Shown here: positions 29,278-39,214 of the stretch, one piece after another
Position numbering within the stretch: position 1 is the stretch's first letter
Layout of the letters: the number at the start of each line of letters is the position of its first letter
Origin: Candidatus Latescibacterota bacterium
GTDB taxonomy: Bacteria; Latescibacterota; UBA2968; UBA8231
NCBI GenBank assembly: GCA_965248355.1
Contig: OZ252098.1
Coordinates: 1,024,001-1,088,000, forward strand
Direction: 5' to 3'
DNA: 64,000 nucleotides
Position numbers and translations under genes: made by a program
Notes under the pieces: generated by a model
The model's database searches: none
Told to the model about the DNA's origin: nothing
Seen by the model: only the letters and a program-made list of their open reading frames with translations

Positions 29278-30606
29278 GTGAGGGACGAGGTTTGGGCCCC
29301 GGATGGTGAGCCCACGGTCCGAATCTCCCATATCGCGGAGAGGGAGGGCGAGCGCGTTCAGTTGCACGGCTGGATCTACAACAGCCGCTCCAGCGGCAAG
29401 CTCCACTTCCTTCAGGTCCGTGACGGTACCGGCATCATCCAGTGCGTCCTGTTCCAGGGCGACGTGACGCCGGAAGTGTTCGAACGCTGCCATCAACTGC
29501 CTCAGGAGACGGCTGTGATCGTACGGGGCCGGGTGCGCTCCGACCCGCGTTCCCCCCTCGGTTTCGAACTGGGGGTGGCGGATCTGGAGGTCGTGCATCG
29601 GTCGGAGGAGTATCCCATCTCACCCAAGGAGCACGGCGTCGCCTTCCTGATGGAGCATCGCCATCTGTGGCTGCGCTCGCTGCGCCCACACGCCGTGCTG
29701 CAGGTGCGCGCCGTGGTGATCGATGCCTGCCGGGAGTACATGCGCCAGGAGGGCTTCCTGCTGATCGACGCCCCGGTGCTCACACCCGCGGCCTGCGAGG
29801 GAACGACGACGCTCTTCGAGACCGACTACTTCGGCGAGACGGCCTACCTGACCCAGAGCGGCCAGCTCTACATGGAGGCCGCGGCCATGGCCTTTGGAAA
29901 GGTCTATTGCTTCGGGCCCACCTTCCGCGCCGAGAAGTCGAAGACCCGGCGCCACCTCACCGAGTTCTGGATGATCGAGCCGGAGATGGCCTACTGCGAT
30001 CTGGCGGGCGGGATGGAGGTCGCGGAGGGATTGGTGACCCACGTGGTTCGGAGGGTCCTTGCGGACTGCCGCGGTGACCTGGAGGCGCTGGAACGCGATC
30101 CGTCGCCCCTGGAAGAGGTCGCCGGCGGGCAGCCCTTCCCGCGTATCTCCTATGATGAGGCCATCGAGATCCTTCGCGACGAGGGCAGCGACCTGCCTTG
30201 GGGGAGCGATCTCGGCGGCGACGACGAGACCCTGCTGTCGCGTCGGTTCGACCGGCCCGTACTCGTCCATCGATACCCGGCGCAGGTGAAGGCCTTCTAC
30301 ATGAAGACCGACCCCGAGGACGGGCGGCTGGCCCTGTGCGTGGACATGCTGGCCCCGGAGGGATACGGAGAGATCGTCGGGGGCGGCCAGCGGGAGGACG
30401 ACCTGCAGGTGATCGAAGCCCGCCTCGCCGAGCACGGCCTGCCCGCCGAGGCCTTCGCCTGGTACCTCGATCTGAGGCGGTACGGCTCCGTTCCGCACGC
30501 CGGATTCGGCATGGGGATCGAGCGCGTCGTGGCCTGGCTGTGCGGCACCCGCCATGTGCGCGAGACGATTCCCTTTCCCAGGACCCTGCAGAGGCTCTAC
30601 CCCTGA
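29278..30606 (+). CDS. asnS: Asparagine--tRNA ligase
   Basis: [36 protein letters not shown]. Confidence 0.95.
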
Positions 30607-30608
30607 CC

Positions 30609-33554
30609 ATGGCAGAGACCGCGGCCCGTCACCCCCCCCCGGGGGGAGCGTACGACTTCCAGCGCATCGAGAAGCGCTGGCGTGACTACTGGTTGGCGGA
30701 AGGCACGTATCGGACCGTTGCACCCGGAGAAGAGGGCTACGACCCGCAGAAGCCGAGGTGCTACATCCTCGACATGTTCCCCTATCCCAGTGGCGAAGGC
30801 CTGCACATCGGCCATCCCAAGGGCTACATCGCCTCCGATATCTACAGCCGCTTCAAGCGCATGGCTGGATACAACGTCCTGCATCCGATGGGGTTCGACA
30901 GTTTCGGGCTGCCTGCCGAGCAGTATGCCATCGAGCACAACGTCCATCCCGCCGTGTCCACCGATCAATGCATCGATCGCATGCGCGCCCAGTTGCAGTA
31001 CCTCGGCCTCGGCTACGACTGGGACCGGGAGATCTCCACATCCCACGAGGACTACTACCGCTGGACCCAGTGGATCTTCCTGCAGCTCTTCGACAGCTGG
31101 TACGATCCGGACCGGGAGTGGCACGACAGCTCGGGGAGGTCGATCCGGGGCCGAGCCCGGCCGATCCCCGAGCTGGTGCAGTCCTTTGAGGACGGAACCC
31201 GGAGCCTCACGGTCCAGGACCGCATATCCCTGCTGGAGAGGCGGGCCGGCGGCTCGGTCGAGGCGGGCTGGCAGGAACTGACGGAGGCCGAGCGTCAGGC
31301 GGTACTGAGCAACTACCGCGTGGCCTATCAGAAGGAGGTCACCGTCAACTGGTGCCCCGGGCTCGGCACGGTTCTGGCCAACGAGGAAGTCACCGCCGAG
31401 GGACGCAGCGAGATCGGCGATCATCCCGTGCACAAGCGCCCGCTGAAGCAGTGGATGCTGCGCATCACCGCCTTCGCCGATCGGCTCCTGGAGGATCTCG
31501 ATGCCGAGGCCCTGCCCGACGGCCGCGGCGCCACCTATGCCCTGGACTGGCCGGCGCCGATCAAGCTCATGCAGCGCAACTGGATCGGCCGCAGCGAGGG
31601 CGCCGAGGTGCGGTTCGACGTCGATGGCTCCCACCGGGCCCGATCCACCCTGGAGGTGTTCACCACCCGGCCCGATACCCTCTTCGGGGCCACCTTCATG
31701 GTGGTGGCCCCCCAGCATCCCCTGTTGTCGGAGGCAGGCCGGGTACCGGACACCTGGCCCCTGGAGACGCCCGAGACATGGAAGGGAGAGCCGGAAGCCC
31801 CGTCCCCCAGGGAAGCCGTCCGTCGACACGCGGCCTGGGCGGAGCGATCCGCCTTCTCCGGCTCCGGACAGGATCAGGACAAGAGCGGTGTCTTCACCGG
31901 GATCTTCGCGCGACGCCCGATGGATGGGGAACGCATCCCCATCTTCACCTCCGACTACGTGAGCATGGAGTACGGCACCGGAGCGATCATGGCCGTCCCC
32001 GCCCACGACGAACGGGACCACGCCTTCGCCCTCAAGTACGGCATCCCCGTCATCCAGGTCGTCGAGCCCCCCCCGGAGGCCGCCGGGGAGTTTCCCTACG
32101 CGGGCGACGGAAGGTCGATCAACTCCCCCGGCGCAAGGGCAGGCGATCCGGCGGGGGAGGCCCATCCCTTCTGCATTTCGGGCTTGCCTACGGCCGAGGC
32201 CAAGTCCCGCATCGTCGAGGCGCTGGAACAGGCAGGCCTGGGCCGCAGCGCTGTCAGCTACCGCCTTCGCGACTGGGTCTTTTCGCGTCAGCGCTATTGG
32301 GGGGAACCCTTCCCCTTGGCGACGCACCCCGATGGGTACACCGTGGCCACCGGCCTGCCCGTGCGGCTGCCGGAGCGCGAGGATTTCAGGCCCACCACCT
32401 CGGAGGATCCTGACACCCCGCTGAAGCCGCCTCTCGGACGAGCCGGACGGGAATGGACCCAGGTGGAGGTGGACGGCCAGACCTGTGACCGCGAGCTCAA
32501 CGTCATGCCCCAATGGGCGGGCTCTTGCTGGTACTTCCTGCGGTTCATCGATCCCCACAACGACCGGGCCTTCTGCGACCCGGACAAGGAGAGGAGCTTC
32601 ATGCCCGTCGATCTCTACATCGGCGGGGCCGAGCACGCCGTGCTGCACCTGCTGTACGCCAGGTTCTGGCACAAGGCGCTCTTCGACCTGGGGCACGTGA
32701 GCTCTCCGGAGCCCTTCAAGAAGCAGTTCAGTCAGGGCATGGTCACCGCCGACGCCTTCACCGACCACCGCGGGGTGTACATCGACATCCGCCAGGTGGC
32801 CTTCGACGCCAACGGCGAACCCGTTCACGCCCAGACAGGGCAGAGGCTGACCCGATTCCGCGGCAAGATGGGAAAACGCTACAAGAACGGCCCGCCCCCG
32901 GAAGAGGTGGGGGAGGAGTACGGCGTCGACACACTGCGATTGTACGAGATGTACATGGGACCCCTGGAGCAGAGCGCCCCCTGGAGCATGGAGGGCATCC
33001 GCGGCATGCAGCGGGTCCTGCAGCGCATCTGGAGAAACCTGGTGGCCCAGGACGGGTCGGCCAAGATCGACGACGGCCCCGCACCCGACGGGCTGCGCAG
33101 GCTTCTGCATCGGACCACTGAGAGGATTACCTCCGACCTGGAGGCTCTCCGCTTCAATACCGCCATTGCCGCCCTGATCGAGCTCAACAACGAGCTGGTC
33201 CCGCTCGAGAGAGTGCCGGCGGAGGTGGCCCGGACGCTCATTCTCCTCCTGCACCCCCTGGCCCCACATCTCGGCGAGGAGCTCTGGGAGCGCTGCGGCT
33301 TTGGATCCGGGGATCTCTCCGCCCAGCCCTGGCCCGATTTCGACGAAGCCCTGACCAGGCGCGACACAATCGTTCTACCCGTGCAGGTCAACGGCAAAGT
33401 CCGGGCAACCATAGAGGTGCCGGCCACGACCTCCGAGGAGGCGGTGCGCCAGCAGGTGCTCGGCCTGGAGAATATCCAGAGACACCTGCCGGATTCGGGA
33501 CAGATAAAGAGACTGATCCTCGTCCCTGGGAGAATCGTGAACATCGTGGTCTGA
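30609..33554 (+). CDS. leuS: Leucine--tRNA ligase
   Basis: MFPYPSG, HIGH, FTTRPDT, SRQRYWG, KMGKR (KMSKS variant). Confidence 0.97.
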   Translation: MAETAARHPPPGGAYDFQRIEKRWRDYWLAEGTYRTVAPGEEGYDPQKPRCYILDMFPYPSGEGLHIGHPKGYIASDIYSRFKRMAGYNVLHPMGFDSFGLPAEQYAIEHNVHPAVSTDQCIDRMRAQLQYLGLGYDWDREISTSHEDYYRWTQWIFLQLFDSWYDPDREWHDSSGRSIRGRARPIPELVQSFEDGTRSLTVQDRISLLERRAGGSVEAGWQELTEAERQAVLSNYRVAYQKEVTVNWCPGLGTVLANEEVTAEGRSEIGDHPVHKRPLKQWMLRITAFADRLLEDLDAEALPDGRGATYALDWPAPIKLMQRNWIGRSEGAEVRFDVDGSHRARSTLEVFTTRPDTLFGATFMVVAPQHPLLSEAGRVPDTWPLETPETWKGEPEAPSPREAVRRHAAWAERSAFSGSGQDQDKSGVFTGIFARRPMDGERIPIFTSDYVSMEYGTGAIMAVPAHDERDHAFALKYGIPVIQVVEPPPEAAGEFPYAGDGRSINSPGARAGDPAGEAHPFCISGLPTAEAKSRIVEALEQAGLGRSAVSYRLRDWVFSRQRYWGEPFPLATHPDGYTVATGLPVRLPEREDFRPTTSEDPDTPLKPPLGRAGREWTQVEVDGQTCDRELNVMPQWAGSCWYFLRFIDPHNDRAFCDPDKERSFMPVDLYIGGAEHAVLHLLYARFWHKALFDLGHVSSPEPFKKQFSQGMVTADAFTDHRGVYIDIRQVAFDANGEPVHAQTGQRLTRFRGKMGKRYKNGPPPEEVGEEYGVDTLRLYEMYMGPLEQSAPWSMEGIRGMQRVLQRIWRNLVAQDGSAKIDDGPAPDGLRRLLHRTTERITSDLEALRFNTAIAALIELNNELVPLERVPAEVARTLILLLHPLAPHLGEELWERCGFGSGDLSAQPWPDFDEALTRRDTIVLPVQVNGKVRATIEVPATTSEEAVRQQVLGLENIQRHLPDSGQIKRLILVPGRIVNIVV

Positions 33555-33604
33555 CGAATGGTCCAAGAGCGGCAACCCCAAGTGAGGGACAGGACATATC
33601 CTTA

Positions 33605-33632
33605 GATACGCATAATTTTGTTTATGTATACA
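33605..33632 (+). other. dif-like XerCD site A
   Basis: GATACGCATAA-TTTTGT-TTATGTATACA vs E. coli dif GGTGCGCATAA-TGTATA-TTATGTTAAAT (9/11 and 7/11 arm matches). Confidence 0.7.
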
Positions 33633-33657
33633 CCGCAGCAAGGGCTCGCGGGTGGAT

Positions 33658-33685
33658 TATTTACATAATGCCGATTATATGGCTA
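33658..33685 (-). other. dif-like XerCD site B
   Basis: Minus strand TAGCCATATAA-TCGGCA-TTATGTAAATA; good XerD-like arm, weak XerC-like arm. Confidence 0.65.
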
Positions 33686-33709
33686 TCGATGGAAGACCTC
33701 GTCCTCCAT

Positions 33710-33738
33710 TTGACAAGTGGAAGGTTACTTGGTATAAT
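33710..33738 (+). promoter_or_regulatory. Consensus sigma70 promoter of the recombinase gene
   Basis: Exact TTGACA (33710-15), 17 nt, TATAAT (33733-38), plus extended -10 TG. Confidence 0.85.
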
Positions 33739-33757
33739 ATCCCTTATAGAAAGTAAC
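33724..33757. repeat. loxP-like 34-bp recombination site (13-8-13)
   Basis: GTTACTTGGTATA-ATATCCCT-TATAGAAAGTAAC; arms 11/13 inverted; 10/13 and 9/13 identical to loxP arms. Confidence 0.75.
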
Positions 33758-33782
33758 GACCTCGTAACAAGGGCCTGAGAGC

Positions 33783-34742
33783 ATGCCCTCCAGTCGCAGC
33801 CCACAGACGGCCCCGGCAACCAGCAATCGTACCGACCTCCAGGTTCCCGTCTCCCAGGGCCTGGCCGATCTCTTCAGCGCTTCCATTTCCAGGAACACGG
33901 CCAAGGCCTACGAGGCCGCCCTTGTCCGCCTCGACGCCCGACTTGTCGGCGCGGCTCTTACAGATCACGCCTTCGCCGAATATCTCACCGAACTCCACCA
34001 CGAAGGCCGGGCCCCGAGCTCCATCGCCCTCGTCGTCTCCGCCGTGAAGTTCCGGGCCAAGCTCCAGGGCGTGTCGTCGCCGGTCGGTCCCATCACCAGC
34101 CGTGCCCTCGCCGGCATCCGGCGGGCCGGGAAATACCGCGGTCAGGGGCAGGTGCAAGGTGTCGGGTTTGCAGCCGCCGACGCTGCGGCCGCGGTCGCCG
34201 GCAGCGACGGCCAGAACCTCGCCGGCCTCCGCGACGCCGCATTGATCGCCATCGCCTCCGATGGCCTGTTGCGGGTCTCCGAAATCGCCGCTATCCAGGC
34301 CGCTGATGTAGAGCAAGCGGACGACGGCAGCGGCCGACTGACGATTCGCAGCTCAAAGACCGACCAGGAAGGGGCCGGCCAAGTGCTCTATCTGGGCGCC
34401 TCCACAATGCGCCGGGTGACGGCCTGGACCACCGCCGCCGGAATCACCTCGGGACCGCTGTTCGTCAGGGTCCGAAAGAACGGCCGCCTCGGCGACAAGG
34501 CCTTGTCCGCCGTCTCGGTCCGGCAGATCATCCGCACCCGATGCAAAGCCGCGGGCGTGGAGGGGCGCCTCTCAGGCCACTCCCTGAGGGTGGGAGGAGC
34601 CCAGTCCCTGGCGGCCGGGGGCGCCTCTGTCGTGGAAATGCAGCAGGCCGGCCGCTGGCAGTCGCCGAACATGCCCGGACACTATGCCAAAGGTCAGTTG
34701 GCCGCCCGGGGCGCTGTCGCTCGCATCCGCTACGGCCAGTAA
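33783..34742 (+). CDS. Cre-like tyrosine recombinase
   Basis: N-terminal SAM-like domain; catalytic R (LLRVSEI), K (SKTDQ), HSLR, W (GRWQS), Y (GHYAK). Confidence 0.92.
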   Translation: MPSSRSPQTAPATSNRTDLQVPVSQGLADLFSASISRNTAKAYEAALVRLDARLVGAALTDHAFAEYLTELHHEGRAPSSIALVVSAVKFRAKLQGVSSPVGPITSRALAGIRRAGKYRGQGQVQGVGFAAADAAAAVAGSDGQNLAGLRDAALIAIASDGLLRVSEIAAIQAADVEQADDGSGRLTIRSSKTDQEGAGQVLYLGASTMRRVTAWTTAAGITSGPLFVRVRKNGRLGDKALSAVSVRQIIRTRCKAAGVEGRLSGHSLRVGGAQSLAAGGASVVEMQQAGRWQSPNMPGHYAKGQLAARGAVARIRYGQ

Positions 34743-34797
34743 GCCCTTCGGGCACTGGGACCAGGGGCCAGCCCTGTTCAGGCTCCCTTCAATCTGA

Positions 34798-34825
34798 AAC
34801 AAACATAATCTATATTATGCGCCTA
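34798..34825 (-). other. dif-like XerCD site C
   Basis: Minus strand TAGGCGCATAA-TATAGA-TTATGTTTGTT (8/11 and 8/11 arm matches to E. coli dif). Confidence 0.75.
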
Positions 34826-34854
34826 CTAAAGGCTGGCCGAAGTGGATCGGGCCG

Positions 34855-36648
<1,794 letters not shown>

Positions 36649-36650
36649 GC

Positions 36651-37229
36651 TCAGAGCTCCGGCGTGATCTCCGAGACCCGGCGCTCGAACTCGGCCTGGG
36701 TCAGGCGCCCTTCCTCCAGATCCTGCCGGGCCCGGGCCAGACGCTCCCGTGGACTGCCCTCTCTCCGGTGCCTGCGGGCCTGCTGCACCAGATTGTACAG
36801 GCCGAAGAGGAGGAGGCCGCCCACGACGGCCAGCCATGCGAGCTCCCGCAGCCAGCGCCGATTGTCGGCCCCCATGACCACGGTCACACCGGAGGTGCGC
36901 CAACGAGCGAGCGCCTCGAGCACCAGGGCCCCTTCGGGCATGGGCAGGATGACATCCTTCGCGAGGACCCGGTGGCCCGCCTGCTCGATGACCACCGGTT
37001 GCCGCAGCCGTCCGATCAGCCTTCCCTCGGCCACCTCGACCCGCTCGACCATGTCCTGGGACACCAACTCCTCCATCCGTTCCAGGCCGATGCGGGTCTC
37101 GGCCGGAGCCAGCAGGCTGAGCAGGAGAAGGAGGCCGAGCAGGCCCGACGCAAGGAGCAGGGCCAGCGAGGTAGGCGACAAGGTGGGCGTCGGCTCGGGG
37201 CTTCCCCCCGCCTCAGGGGCTGTTGTCAC
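36651..37229 (-). CDS. Membrane protein resembling the FtsH N-terminal TM-periplasmic-TM module, with a short C-terminal SHOCT-like helix
   Basis: Two TM helices flanking a VERVEV-containing domain; ends LEEGRLTQAEFERR; coupled GTGA start. Confidence 0.55.
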   Translation of the reverse strand: MTTAPEAGGSPEPTPTLSPTSLALLLASGLLGLLLLLSLLAPAETRIGLERMEELVSQDMVERVEVAEGRLIGRLRQPVVIEQAGHRVLAKDVILPMPEGALVLEALARWRTSGVTVVMGADNRRWLRELAWLAVVGGLLLFGLYNLVQQARRHRREGSPRERLARARQDLEEGRLTQAEFERRVSEITPEL

Positions 37230-38134
37230 GTGAGCTCTCCCACGCCCAGCCGACGTCCGAGGCGAGCCGCCCGGCGCACCCATTCGCTCAACAACAGGGC
37301 CCGGCGGAGGTCCTTCGCCAGTGGGTCGGGGGTCGTCTCCCGGCCCTGAAGGGCGGCGAGGAGCTCCTCGTACTGGCGCCGCAGACCGGTCATGCGGGCC
37401 TCGTGCAGATCCTCGTGGACGAGGGCCCGGCCTCCGTGGCCGTAGAGCTCGAAGTCGACGTCGGCCTCCGTCTCCGTTCCAAGGGCGTGAACCTCCAGCA
37501 GGGCCTCCAGGCCGTTGACGAACTCGAGGTGAGCGAGAGCCAGATCCTCCTCCGGCCGGTTGCGCACCAGGGCCCTGGTGTGCGCGGCGACCGTGTCGAT
37601 CCGGCCGAAGAGCTCCTCCAGCAGCAGCGGCGCCCAGAGGTACTGGGAGCCGAGCAGACCGTCGGTCCCGGCCCAGGCTCGCGGCACCCTGACCCGGAGG
37701 CGGGCGTAGACCGGCCCTTCGACCCGGGCCGCGGAGAGACGTGCCTCGTCGGCAAACCCCGAGTGAAGGCTTGGCGCGTCGATCCGCAGCATGCCCTGCC
37801 GCTGCGTCGCCGCCAGAACGGCCGCCAACTCTCCCACCCGGCGCCAACTGGTGGGCGGACAGGCGCACAGGACCCCGTGCCCCGACTCCAGGGCGTGGCG
37901 AATCCAGTATCCGCGCTCCGTCGGTGGAGAGAGCACGGCGACCATGCCCACACGGGGGTCGGCCAACCGTTCCTCCGGGCCTTCTTTCGGTCCTGGCTCG
38001 AGCACGTGCAGACCGGCCACGGAGCGGATGGCCGCCAGATGACGCGCGCGCTCCGAGTGCCCCAGGACGGCGACACCCACCGCTTCGGACACGAGACTCC
38101 GTCTCCAGGCTTCAGGGATTCTCGGGGAGGGCAA
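37226..38134 (-). CDS. Degenerate Gfo/Idh/MocA-like oxidoreductase
   Basis: VGVAVLG, ALESGHGVLC, EDLALAHLEF.NG; canonical EKP is replaced. Confidence 0.5.
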   Translation of the reverse strand: MPSPRIPEAWRRSLVSEAVGVAVLGHSERARHLAAIRSVAGLHVLEPGPKEGPEERLADPRVGMVAVLSPPTERGYWIRHALESGHGVLCACPPTSWRRVGELAAVLAATQRQGMLRIDAPSLHSGFADEARLSAARVEGPVYARLRVRVPRAWAGTDGLLGSQYLWAPLLLEELFGRIDTVAAHTRALVRNRPEEDLALAHLEFVNGLEALLEVHALGTETEADVDFELYGHGGRALVHEDLHEARMTGLRRQYEELLAALQGRETTPDPLAKDLRRALLLSEWVRRAARLGRRLGVGELT

Positions 38135-38212
38135 GGATGATACGGGCCATGCCGCCCCAGGCCAAGAACCCCATGGAGCAGGTCGGGAGGCAACCCTCCG
38201 AGGCCGCGCCCC

Positions 38213-39214
38213 TCAAGGCTTCCCGGAGCCCTCCGCCGGCCCCCTCTCCCCTGTCGCCCTCCTGTGCATCTGCCGGATGAGGCGCTTGTTGAACTCCTGG
38301 GCCGCATGGTAGCCGTCGATCCGGAGCAGGTAGTTGAAGGCGATCGTCTCGGCGATGACGGTGACGTTCTTTCCAGGATAGATCGGCACCATGACCTCGG
38401 GGATCTCGGCCCCGAGAATGGTGAAGGCGCGATCCTCGATGCCGGTGCGCTCGTAATCGAGCCCCTCCTGCCAGTCCACCAGGGTCAGGACGACCTCGAC
38501 TCGTTTCTGCCTGCGGGTTCCGCCGACGCCGAAGAGTCGCTTCACATCCACGATGCCGATCCCCCGGATCTCGATGTGGTCCTGCAGCAACCGCGGCGGC
38601 CGGCCCATGAGCAGGCCCTGGGACTGGCGGGTAATGATGACGGTGTCATCCGCGACGAGACGGTGGCCGCGCTCCACGAGATCGAGGCCGACCTCGCTCT
38701 TGCCGATGCCGCTGCGGCCCATGATCAGAAGGCCCACCCCGTGGACATCGACGAGGGTGCCGTGCAGGGTCGCCTGCGGGGCGAAGTGATCGTCCAGGTA
38801 GAAGTGCAGGAGGTGGATGAACTTGGTCGTGTCGAACTCCGAGCGCAGCAGAGGGATCCCGCACTGGTCGGCGAGGCGGCGCAGCTCGGGCAACAGCCGG
38901 CCCCGGCCGGTGACGACCACGCACGGGAGCTCGAACTGATAGAGGATCTCCAACGCCTGGCGGCGCCGGTCGGGTGACAGGCTTCTCAGGTACTCCAGCT
39001 CATGGTTGCCGAGGATCTGAACCAGGTTGAAGGTGAAGACCTCGACGAACCCGGTCAGGGTCAATCCGGGTCGATGGACATCGCTGCTGTTGATCACCCG
39101 GCCCATGCCCTGCCCGCCGGCCACCAGGCGCAACCCGAGGCGGCGTCCATACCGCTTGAGCAGGCTCTCGATCTTCATCTGCGCCTCGGTGCGGCCACCT
39201 GCGGTGGTGCTCAT
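38213..39214 (-). CDS. hprK: HPr kinase/phosphorylase
   Basis: HRPGL.LTGF, HGTLVDV.GVG, GRSGIGKSE, GHRLVADD, IEIRGIGI. Confidence 0.96.
   Translation of the reverse strand: MSTTAGGRTEAQMKIESLLKRYGRRLGLRLVAGGQGMGRVINSSDVHRPGLTLTGFVEVFTFNLVQILGNHELEYLRSLSPDRRRQALEILYQFELPCVVVTGRGRLLPELRRLADQCGIPLLRSEFDTTKFIHLLHFYLDDHFAPQATLHGTLVDVHGVGLLIMGRSGIGKSEVGLDLVERGHRLVADDTVIITRQSQGLLMGRPPRLLQDHIEIRGIGIVDVKRLFGVGGTRRQKRVEVVLTLVDWQEGLDYERTGIEDRAFTILGAEIPEVMVPIYPGKNVTVIAETIAFNYLLRIDGYHAAQEFNKRLIRQMHRRATGERGPAEGSGKP

Follow-up and report, generated by a model that had tools for sequence, protein, structure and literature searches.

A Cre/lox-like module probably took the place of a resident recombinase in the dif region of a Latescibacterota chromosome

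The stretch of DNA analyzed here (the window) comprises 64,000 nucleotides from a Candidatus Latescibacterota bacterium (assembly GCA_965248355.1, contig OZ252098.1, positions 1,024,001 to 1,088,000), and our subject is the interval between its leuS and mutL genes, where a gene for a Cre-family tyrosine recombinase is surrounded by sites resembling dif. The genome of the window is called G000; coordinates are those of the window unless marked as genome coordinates, and G numbers denote genomes of relatives, L numbers fetched loci, P numbers proteins, and X numbers sequencing runs. Three dif-like sites, each with two 11-bp arms around a 6-bp spacer (11-6-11), lie in the interval. Site A (33605 to 33632, plus strand; GATACGCATAA-TTTTGT-TTATGTATACA) has a XerC-type arm followed by a XerD-type arm. 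Sites B (33658 to 33685) and C (34798 to 34825) are on the minus strand, where they read TAGCCATATAA-TCGGCA-TTATGTAAATA and TAGGCGCATAA-TATAGA-TTATGTTTGTT, respectively, and they form the left and right edges of a replaced segment. This segment contains a sigma-70 promoter (33710 to 33738, plus strand; TTGACA-17-TATAAT with a TG extension, 12 of 12 matches), a lox-like palindrome (pal), and a sole open reading frame, which encodes the 319-residue recombinase P0001 (33783 to 34742, plus strand). The palindrome can be described as a 13-8-13 site (33724 to 33757, plus strand; GTTACTTGGTATA-ATATCCCT-TATAGAAAGTAAC) or as an 11-6-11 site (33727 to 33754, plus strand; ACTTGGTATAA-TATCCC-TTATAGAAAGT). 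The left border of the slot is leuS, for leucyl-tRNA synthetase (30198 to 33554, plus strand; Pfam tRNA-synt_1_2, tRNA-synt_1, and Anticodon_1); these coordinates are those of the longest open reading frame, and the real start is probably further downstream. The right border is mutL (34855 to 36903, minus strand, with its stop at 34855; Pfam MutL_C, DNA_mis_repair, and HATPase_c_3).

The original prediction, made from the sequence of this DNA, had described B and C as minus-strand direct repeats enclosing a promoter, a lox-like site, and a recombinase gene; on re-reading, its letters, strands, and spacers for both sites proved correct, and the enclosed segment measured 1.14 kb. By hand count, B and C share 15 of 22 arm positions and 2 of 6 spacer positions. 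Site A is inverted relative to B, 25 bp away, and it is also inversely oriented to C, which on the plus strand has its XerD-type arm before its XerC-type arm, so that the XerD-type arms of A and C face inside. Read on the plus strand, the three spacers are all different (TTTTGT in A, TGCCGA in B, and TCTATA in C). As a group the sites are far from a chance occurrence: CATAA-N6-TTATG, with at most one mismatch, is present three times in the window against 0.05 expected, a count reached in none of 100 shuffles, and the looser core WTAA-N6-TTAW occurs six times in the whole 5,503,661-bp genome, with four of the six inside this 1.2-kb interval. The promoter search gave two promoter-like sites against 0.3 expected. 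The inner arm of B contains TATAA, as does the lox-like site, and from its letters site B could be a hybrid of a host dif and an element attachment site; the site in G011 and the one in G013 have exactly the XerD-type arm of B.

The cluster of sites lies at the replication terminus. G000 is a single contig of 5.5 Mb with 68.9% GC, in which the minimum of the cumulative GC skew (3,752,337) coincides with dnaA (3,753,410) and the maximum is a plateau between 1.00 and 1.10 Mb that includes the cluster (1,057,605 to 1,058,825; all genome coordinates). Cluster and origin are 2.69 Mb apart, which amounts to 49% of the chromosome. Sequences resembling the FtsK orienting polar sequences (KOPS) were sought among the ten most strand-skewed octamers, chosen from sequence outside 0.7 to 1.4 Mb only. 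The two most skewed in this training set, GGGGGAGG (179 versus 388) and GGGGAGGG (146 versus 278), fit the Escherichia coli KOPS consensus, GGGNAGGG. The polarity of the KOPS-like octamers switches within a 6-kb interval (genome 1,056,908 to 1,063,202; window approximately 32,900 to 39,200) that falls on the cluster, and elsewhere G000 encodes an FtsK that has a gamma domain. Because the cluster sits where the skew, the KOPS-like polarity, and the antipode of dnaA place the terminus, one or more of them very likely serves as the working dif, in agreement with the earlier view that they mark the real dif region of the organism. The same position is kept in all seven of the single-contig relatives tested (G011, G017, G046, G049, G079, G081, and G083), with the slot at 46.6 to 53.3% of the chromosome from dnaA.

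P0001 has one Pfam domain match, PF00589 (50.7 bits). In a phmmer search against the PDB, the only strong matches were 17 chains of Cre or Tre, with E values from 2.2e-19 to 8.4e-17 over query residues 65 to 315. The best Cre match (E value of 2.2e-19, residues 66 to 315) aligned all six catalytic residues (R, K, H-x-x-R, W, and Y), and the P0001 motifs LLRVSE, SSKT, GHSLRVG, GRW, and GHY are paired with LLRIAE, RTKT, GHSARVG, GGW, and MNY of Cre, whose catalytic residues are given as R173, K201, H289, R292, W315, and Y324 (PMC10250229). Four Xer-family models of NCBIfam were also run on P0001; it scored 47.1 bits with XerA (cut-off, 220), 35.8 with XerD (cut-off, 329.6), and 33.3 with XerC (cut-off, 335), and it obtained no score with XerS. 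Judged by these alignments, P0001 is a true Cre homolog.

The lox-like site, unique in the G000 genome, lies 26 bp upstream of the P0001 start codon, and its arms are symmetric at 11 of 13 positions. By hand count, the arms GTTACTTGGTATA and, reverse complemented, GTTACTTTCTATA are identical to the loxP arm at 10 and 9 of 13 positions; the loxP reference string was confirmed verbatim in 258 published papers. The suggestion of a Cre-like gene with an internal lox-like site is thus borne out by both comparisons. Cre-type enzymes are described as having 13-8-13 sites at most 1 kb from the gene, and this pairing of gene and site has been used to find such systems (PMC10250229). The lox-like site is presumed to be the one at which P0001 binds and recombines. 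Moreover, the -10 box, TATAAT, is inside the left arm of the site, so a bound recombinase should shut off its own promoter. Equivalent sites are found upstream of Cre-like genes in G046 (with an arm identical to the loxP arm at 11 of 13 positions), G061, G053, and many other phyla. The layout of promoter over palindrome was also recognized by eye in three loci of genus g21, described below, and in L004, L007, L008, L009, and L030 with GATAAT, a -10 box that many copies of the wider family carry in their upstream palindrome.

We then compared the same slot across relatives, whose intervals were fetched by means of the LeuS C terminus, giving a census of 18 slot loci including G000. None of the 17 loci of relatives was empty. 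A P0003-type gene was present in 14 and a Cre-like gene in 3, and each resolved slot, in all 17 relatives and in G000, contained a recombinase and no other cargo. The P0003 type is a Xer-like protein specific to this lineage, with 317 residues and a score of 116 bits on the XerC model. Its gene adjoins mutL in the 14 loci and is convergent with the neighboring leuS in 13 of them; the exception is G019 (L091, G019:C1:980656-984546), where the P0003 cassette stands inverted with respect to mutL and has no adjoining leuS. Across ten pairs, the identity of P0003 falls in step with that of LeuS (88/89, 87/89, 75/74, 73/75, 70/72, 70/70, 64/67, 62/64, 59/67, and 60/61% for P0003/LeuS), indicating that P0003 is vertically inherited. 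Of 49 other genomes of the family, 41 have it as a single-copy gene, and a search of 51 genomes from three sister families found it in none. An orthologue of P0003 is missing from G000, where the best match is the XerD-like gene at 29% identity. P0003 has its own palindromic 11-6-11 site 90 to 380 bp upstream (e.g., ACCAACGATAA-TGACTG-TTATCGTTGGT), and a palindrome of either type was detected in 15 of the 18 loci, the three misses having at most 211 nt of upstream sequence. In G004, the P0003 gene (L055, G004:C270:3677-5618) matches in two pieces, query residues 1 to 152 and 167 to 317, which in this fragmented genome suggests a frameshift or an assembly error.

The DNA itself marks the borders of the exchange. 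Homology to sister species stops at the leuS stop codon and resumes at C or at mutL (at 34803, that is, at C, in the comparison with G006), and the stretch from B to C is exactly the part that has no DNA homology to the sister species. In G000, the Cre-like gene thus occupies the place that the resident P0003 gene holds in relatives. The dif-like sites are found there as well: 14 of 18 loci have them toward leuS, and of the 15 loci extending as far as mutL, 12 have them toward mutL (S2 type). Sites like A lie 50 to 80 bp past leuS in G006, G004, G011, G013, G015, G017, and G023. G004 has a three-site pattern like that of G000, in which a leuS-adjacent site with the XerC-type arm before the XerD-type arm is followed by two direct repeats of opposite sense around the cassette; G007 and G002 have two direct repeats only, and in G006 a single site stands to either side of the cassette. 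Counterparts of B (1b) occur in G004, G007, G002, and G005 as direct repeats of the mutL-side site. The mutL-side site of G006, ATGACACATAA-TCTATA-TTATCCGCCAT, has a spacer identical to that of C and 8 of 11 identical positions in each arm. A is by position the counterpart of the leuS-adjacent site of the relatives (S1), and C is the resident mutL-side site. Since relatives with P0003 show the multi-site layout and the G006 site matches C, this multi-site landing pad predates the Cre cassette.

The age of the sites bears on how the cassette arrived. The original prediction read the segment as a classic integrative mobile element that exploits Xer (IMEX): a 1.14-kb circle that bore the Cre-like gene and the lox-like site along with a degenerate mimic of dif would have been integrated by the Xer proteins of the host into a single dif, with B and C as hybrid junctions locked by their spacers. 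Part of this reading stands. The segment is foreign, without DNA homology to the sister species and with a gene from a horizontally mobile family; it lies at the dif region; and it is bounded exactly by the direct repeats B and C, whose outer arms fit the family dif consensus (CGCATAA, together with the TTATGTAAATA also present in G011 and G013). Mobility is also suggested by the G006 member of the Cre-like clade, encoded behind an AlpA-like gene, and by repeated units of about 1 to 1.2 kb, made of gene and upstream region, in other genomes. Mismatched spacers are a reasonable stabilizer, in line with the account of LME-1, an element stabilized by modified flanking sites (PMC9765430). The entry of a circle into one dif, which it would have split in two, fares worse. 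The comparison of related genomes, expected to yield an empty single dif, gave a recombinase in every locus, and the multi-site layout surrounds the resident P0003, with three sites in G004 and direct repeats in G004, G007, and G002. Site C, taken to be a product of integration, matches the resident site of G006 in both arms and in the spacer. Such an element would also have its own recombinase, unlike defined IMEXs, and with a tyrosine recombinase as the only gene of the cassette the notion of an element that exploits the host Xer for lack of an enzyme loses its footing. Lastly, the g21 Cre-like genes are vertically inherited under a ratio of nonsynonymous to synonymous substitution rates (dN/dS) of about 0.1. 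We hold integration of a circle into a single dif to be distinctly unlikely.

The displacement of P0003 recurs in a second genus. All three genomes of g21 lack P0003 and have a Cre-like gene in the leuS-mutL slot, on the same strand as in G000 and 63 to 67% identical to P0001. Their lox-like sites over TATAAT read ACTTCGTATAA-TTGTAG-TTAACAAAACT, AGTTTGTATAA-TTCACG-TTATCAAAACT, and ACTTTGTATAA-TTACAG-TTAACAAAAGT, and a dif-like site adjoins mutL in these loci. The one in G053 (L107, G053:C11:191000-197800; approximately 1985 to 2000 of the reverse complement) is half deleted, with the leuS-side and lox-like sites intact, and the mutL-side site thus seems dispensable. Pairwise identities within g21 are 84 to 87% for the Cre-like genes, 87.5 to 94.7% for LeuS, and 84 to 93% for MutL, and the dN/dS of the Cre-like genes is 0.10 to 0.12. 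As their sequences indicate, these genes are old, vertically inherited, and under purifying selection. A quick maximum-likelihood tree of 68 proteins, which did not resolve the backbone, places P0001 with full support in a clade of 16 members, the G006 copy among them, and the g21 genes in a separate clade of 11, also fully supported. Two separate captures, one in G000 and one in g21, are likely the simplest reading.

Relatives of P0001 are widespread. The closest homologs (P0007 to P0017) are 80 to 87% identical, a scan of metagenome contigs yielded homologs of 58 to 65%, and homologs of 50 to 61% occur in metagenome-assembled genomes (MAGs) labeled Acidobacteriota, Binatia, Trueperaceae, Latescibacterota, Gammaproteobacteria, Poribacteria, and Dehalococcoidia. 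They are often present as several copies or fragments per genome, and the unit repeated within genomes is the gene with 100 to 350 bp of upstream sequence. The position of the Cre-like integrase of G006 after an AlpA-like gene suggests that this copy is part of a mobile element. In a Poribacteria genome with 1.2-kb repeated units, no clear site was seen at the unit boundaries. Two general properties considered for the family were rejected. It is not terminus specific in other phyla, as its copies lie 11 to 43% of the chromosome from dnaA in five complete genomes, and flanking dif-like sites are not a general trait, since outside the family of G000 extra sites were met only in one gammaproteobacterial MAG (L017 and L030). 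In that MAG, several GCGCGATAA-N6-TTATCGCGC palindromes surround a decayed Cre-like gene (L030:3150-4530 and L017:6655); this motif looks like a dispersed, genome-wide repeat of the repetitive extragenic palindromic type and not like recombination sites. The Cre-like family thus supplies ready-made modules of gene plus site, and placement at the terminus is special to the family of G000.

G000 has only three genes with PF00589: those for P0001, the XerD-like P0002, and the XerC-like P0004. The P0004 gene is directly downstream of topA (genome 2,237,600 to 2,238,548; L070:1601-2548, plus strand), and in an alignment with the XerD-like protein its product lacks the second catalytic histidine and the nucleophilic tyrosine. 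Its orthologues in G006 and G007 are 83% identical; the tyrosine is absent from the aligned G011 protein and is kept in G017. A XerC in decay would account for the retention of a third recombinase at dif. The loss of the tyrosine in G000 and G011 also lends some appeal to the idea that the Cre-like protein replaces a lost partner at the dif-like sites. In this view it would bind, next to XerD, the CGCATAA-type arm of either A or C and carry Xer recombination through to the end at that site, with the lox-like site as an operator only. Apart from the XerC-like and XerD-like genes, the slot gene (P0003, then the Cre-like gene) is the only other tyrosine recombinase, completing the set of three in G000, and the ATAA-N6-TTAT core is common to the lox-like site and all the others. 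At their outer positions, however, the arms of A, B, and C do not look like the lox-like arms, and across the 18 loci arm type showed no correlation with recombinase type. Cre-type enzymes are described as homotetramers acting on symmetric sites (PMC10250229). We consider a mixed XerD-Cre partnership quite improbable.

Another alternative starts from the inverted pair A and C. Together they have the geometry described for a "D module" (PMC13141974), with XerD-type arms inside, and the interval could be a chromosomal dif module, where XerD and a partner shuffle the content between A and C and the Cre-like gene rides as passive cargo with no maintenance role. The intact XerD-like gene would allow this, and the cassette content varies by lineage between P0003 and Cre-like genes and is inverted in G019. 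There, the order is palindrome, plus-strand gene, dif-like site, and mutL, with an upstream dif-like site reading ATGCCGTATAA-TATATT-TTACGTAAATA, an arrangement consistent with inversion between inversely oriented sites. Yet a recombinase as sole cargo in every slot is not expected of a general cargo site, and strong purifying selection on the vertically inherited g21 gene does not suit a passenger. Present-day exchange is also unlikely given three different spacers, as dif modules move or invert through sites with a common 6-bp spacer, and such modules have so far been described on plasmids. Passive carriage in a dif module is therefore an unlikely explanation.

Variation among strains was followed in the Logan contigs of four runs. 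The whole arrangement, cassette included, is present in contigs of three studies (runs X1, X3, and X7); X2, with a share of sampled words of 0.11 and scattered pieces only, was left out of the interpretation. X3 is identical to the window, X7 has two substitutions and one gap, and several pieces make up the coverage of X1; the assembly may come from X3 or X7. Across strains no change is seen in C, in the 28 bp of A, or in the 11-6-11 core of the lox-like site. Among the sites only B varies, with X1 differing at 33660 and 33672 and X7 at 33658. The two differences of X1 within the P0001 gene (34685 and 34698) are both synonymous by hand check. Further changes in X1 are a tandem duplication of 9 bp (AGATACGCA) at 33603-33604, at the outer edge of the left arm of A, and a 1-bp deletion at 33642; both are outside the 11-6-11 core of A. 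No joint indicating excision (between B and C) or inversion (between A and C) was found in the contigs of the four runs, which are uninformative on excision since contigs drop rare forms. Two other joints, 34224 to 34890 and 34279 to 34623, were discarded as low-depth contigs of paralogues.

The explanation that we favor, with a probability of roughly 60%, is that a self-regulated Cre/lox-like module, which probably resolves chromosome dimers, displaced the dif-linked recombinase resident in this family, doing so in place and within the segment from B to C. According to this proposal, the leuS-mutL interval would be the dif region of the family, in which a recombinase gene, with its own palindrome upstream, is kept between dif-like sites. 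A Cre-family recombinase captured from mobile elements would have brought its own promoter and lox-like 13-8-13 site. The protein would bind that site and, as the site covers the -10 box, repress its own gene. On a chromosome dimer, the two copies of the lox-like site, brought together by KOPS-guided FtsK, would recombine and so resolve the dimer. Sites A, B, and C would be the resident dif-like sites of the family, whose differing spacers would prevent excision of the cassette. More tentatively, the family as a whole may have moved dimer resolution from XerCD to an exchangeable recombinase cassette housed at dif, naturally replaced at least two times by Cre/lox modules of mobile elements.

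Several observations weigh against the favored explanation. Recombination at the lox-like site is a prediction from sequence, and the site could be an operator only. The intact XerD-like gene, P0002, is kept (299.6 bits on the XerD model), and together with the well-formed sites A and C it might suffice for dimer resolution. Uncontrolled recombination of the Cre type can itself create dimers. Elsewhere, the Cre-like family behaves as mobile-element integrases, with copies next to a D5_N primase, terminase, IS3-type transposases, ThsB, and AbiEii, in addition to their off-terminus positions in the five other complete genomes. The tree, quick and with a weak backbone, makes two independent captures likely and does not prove them. 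Moreover, five further genomes of the family are without P0003; four of them have no assembled mutL end of the slot, and in the fifth, G074, the synteny differs and no recombinase lies closer than 1.5 kb to the mutL stop, so that the synteny of the slot is not universal. In the G074 locus (L108, G074:C117:4491-8045), another convergent gene comes after mutL; a dif-like site (TATTTACATAA-ATTAAT-ATATGCGAATT) lies at position 3276 of L108, just upstream of the mutL start.

If dimers are indeed resolved at the lox-like site, the module would be the first Cre/lox system seen in nature to do housekeeping work for a chromosome; our literature search found no description of a natural Cre-type module at a chromosome terminus. 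It would make the terminus recombinase a swappable part and provide a concrete case of the domestication of a mobile-element integrase. All in all, the module looks like a swapped-in part for untangling chromosomes and not like a passing parasite.

Among known systems, the dif modules (pdif) of Acinetobacter plasmids, as described in PMC13141974, are the nearest precedent for exchangeable units between inverted Xer sites. The unit between A and C resembles them in its inversely oriented XerC/XerD-type sites with the XerD arms inside, and the relatives give evidence of module inversion (G019) and of exchanged content. The locus differs from them in its place at a chromosomal terminus, in a cargo that is always a recombinase, in a third site, B, that breaks the alternation, and in spacers that are all different. 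With IMEXs such as CTXphi, TLCphi, the gonococcal island, and LME-1, it shares foreign DNA at the dif region between nonidentical direct dif-like repeats that would hinder excision (in the terms of PMC9765430). Unlike IMEXs, the G000 cassette encodes its own recombinase, no empty allele is found in the 17 relatives, the flanking sites are older than the cassette, and a resident gene was replaced where IMEXs are added to an intact site.

The nearest natural precedent is offered by the single-recombinase Xer systems, in which the gene is next to its site. In XerS/difSL, XerH/difH, XerL/dif, and some XerA/dif modules, the gene is reported to lie beside the site at the terminus (PMC5357621; PMC9765430). 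The P0001 gene likewise adjoins a recombination-type site at the terminus, in a genome with an FtsK gamma domain and converging KOPS-like polarity. However, P0001 is far below the cut-offs of the XerA, XerD, and XerC models and has no XerS score, it coexists with a XerD-like and a degenerate XerC-like gene, extra dif-like sites flank it, and its role is a predicted one.

The closest resemblance in protein and site is to Cre/loxP of P1 and to other Cre-type recombinases such as Dre, Vika, Nigri, and Panto: P0001 shows homology over the whole core with the six catalytic residues, and its gene has a symmetric 13-8-13 site within 60 bp whose arms are identical to the loxP arm at 9 to 10 of 13 positions. 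The natural work of Cre/loxP includes the resolution of P1 plasmid dimers, and when put at the dif position of Escherichia coli the pair resolves chromosome dimers. In contrast to Cre/loxP, the G000 module is chromosomal, at the terminus of a 5.5-Mb chromosome and not on a phage or plasmid; its site overlaps the -10 box of the gene and is embedded among dif-like sites; and the identity of P0001 to Cre is low, detectable by phmmer only. P0001 is in any case a new compact recombinase of the Cre type with a predicted target, and pairs of this kind are wanted as genome-engineering tools (as stated in PMC10250229). In the laboratory, Cre-loxP can replace XerCD-dif within the terminus region, in a manner dependent on FtsK translocation (reported in PMC2680272); if the proposed dimer resolution at the lox-like site holds, the module of G000 would be the natural counterpart of that replacement.

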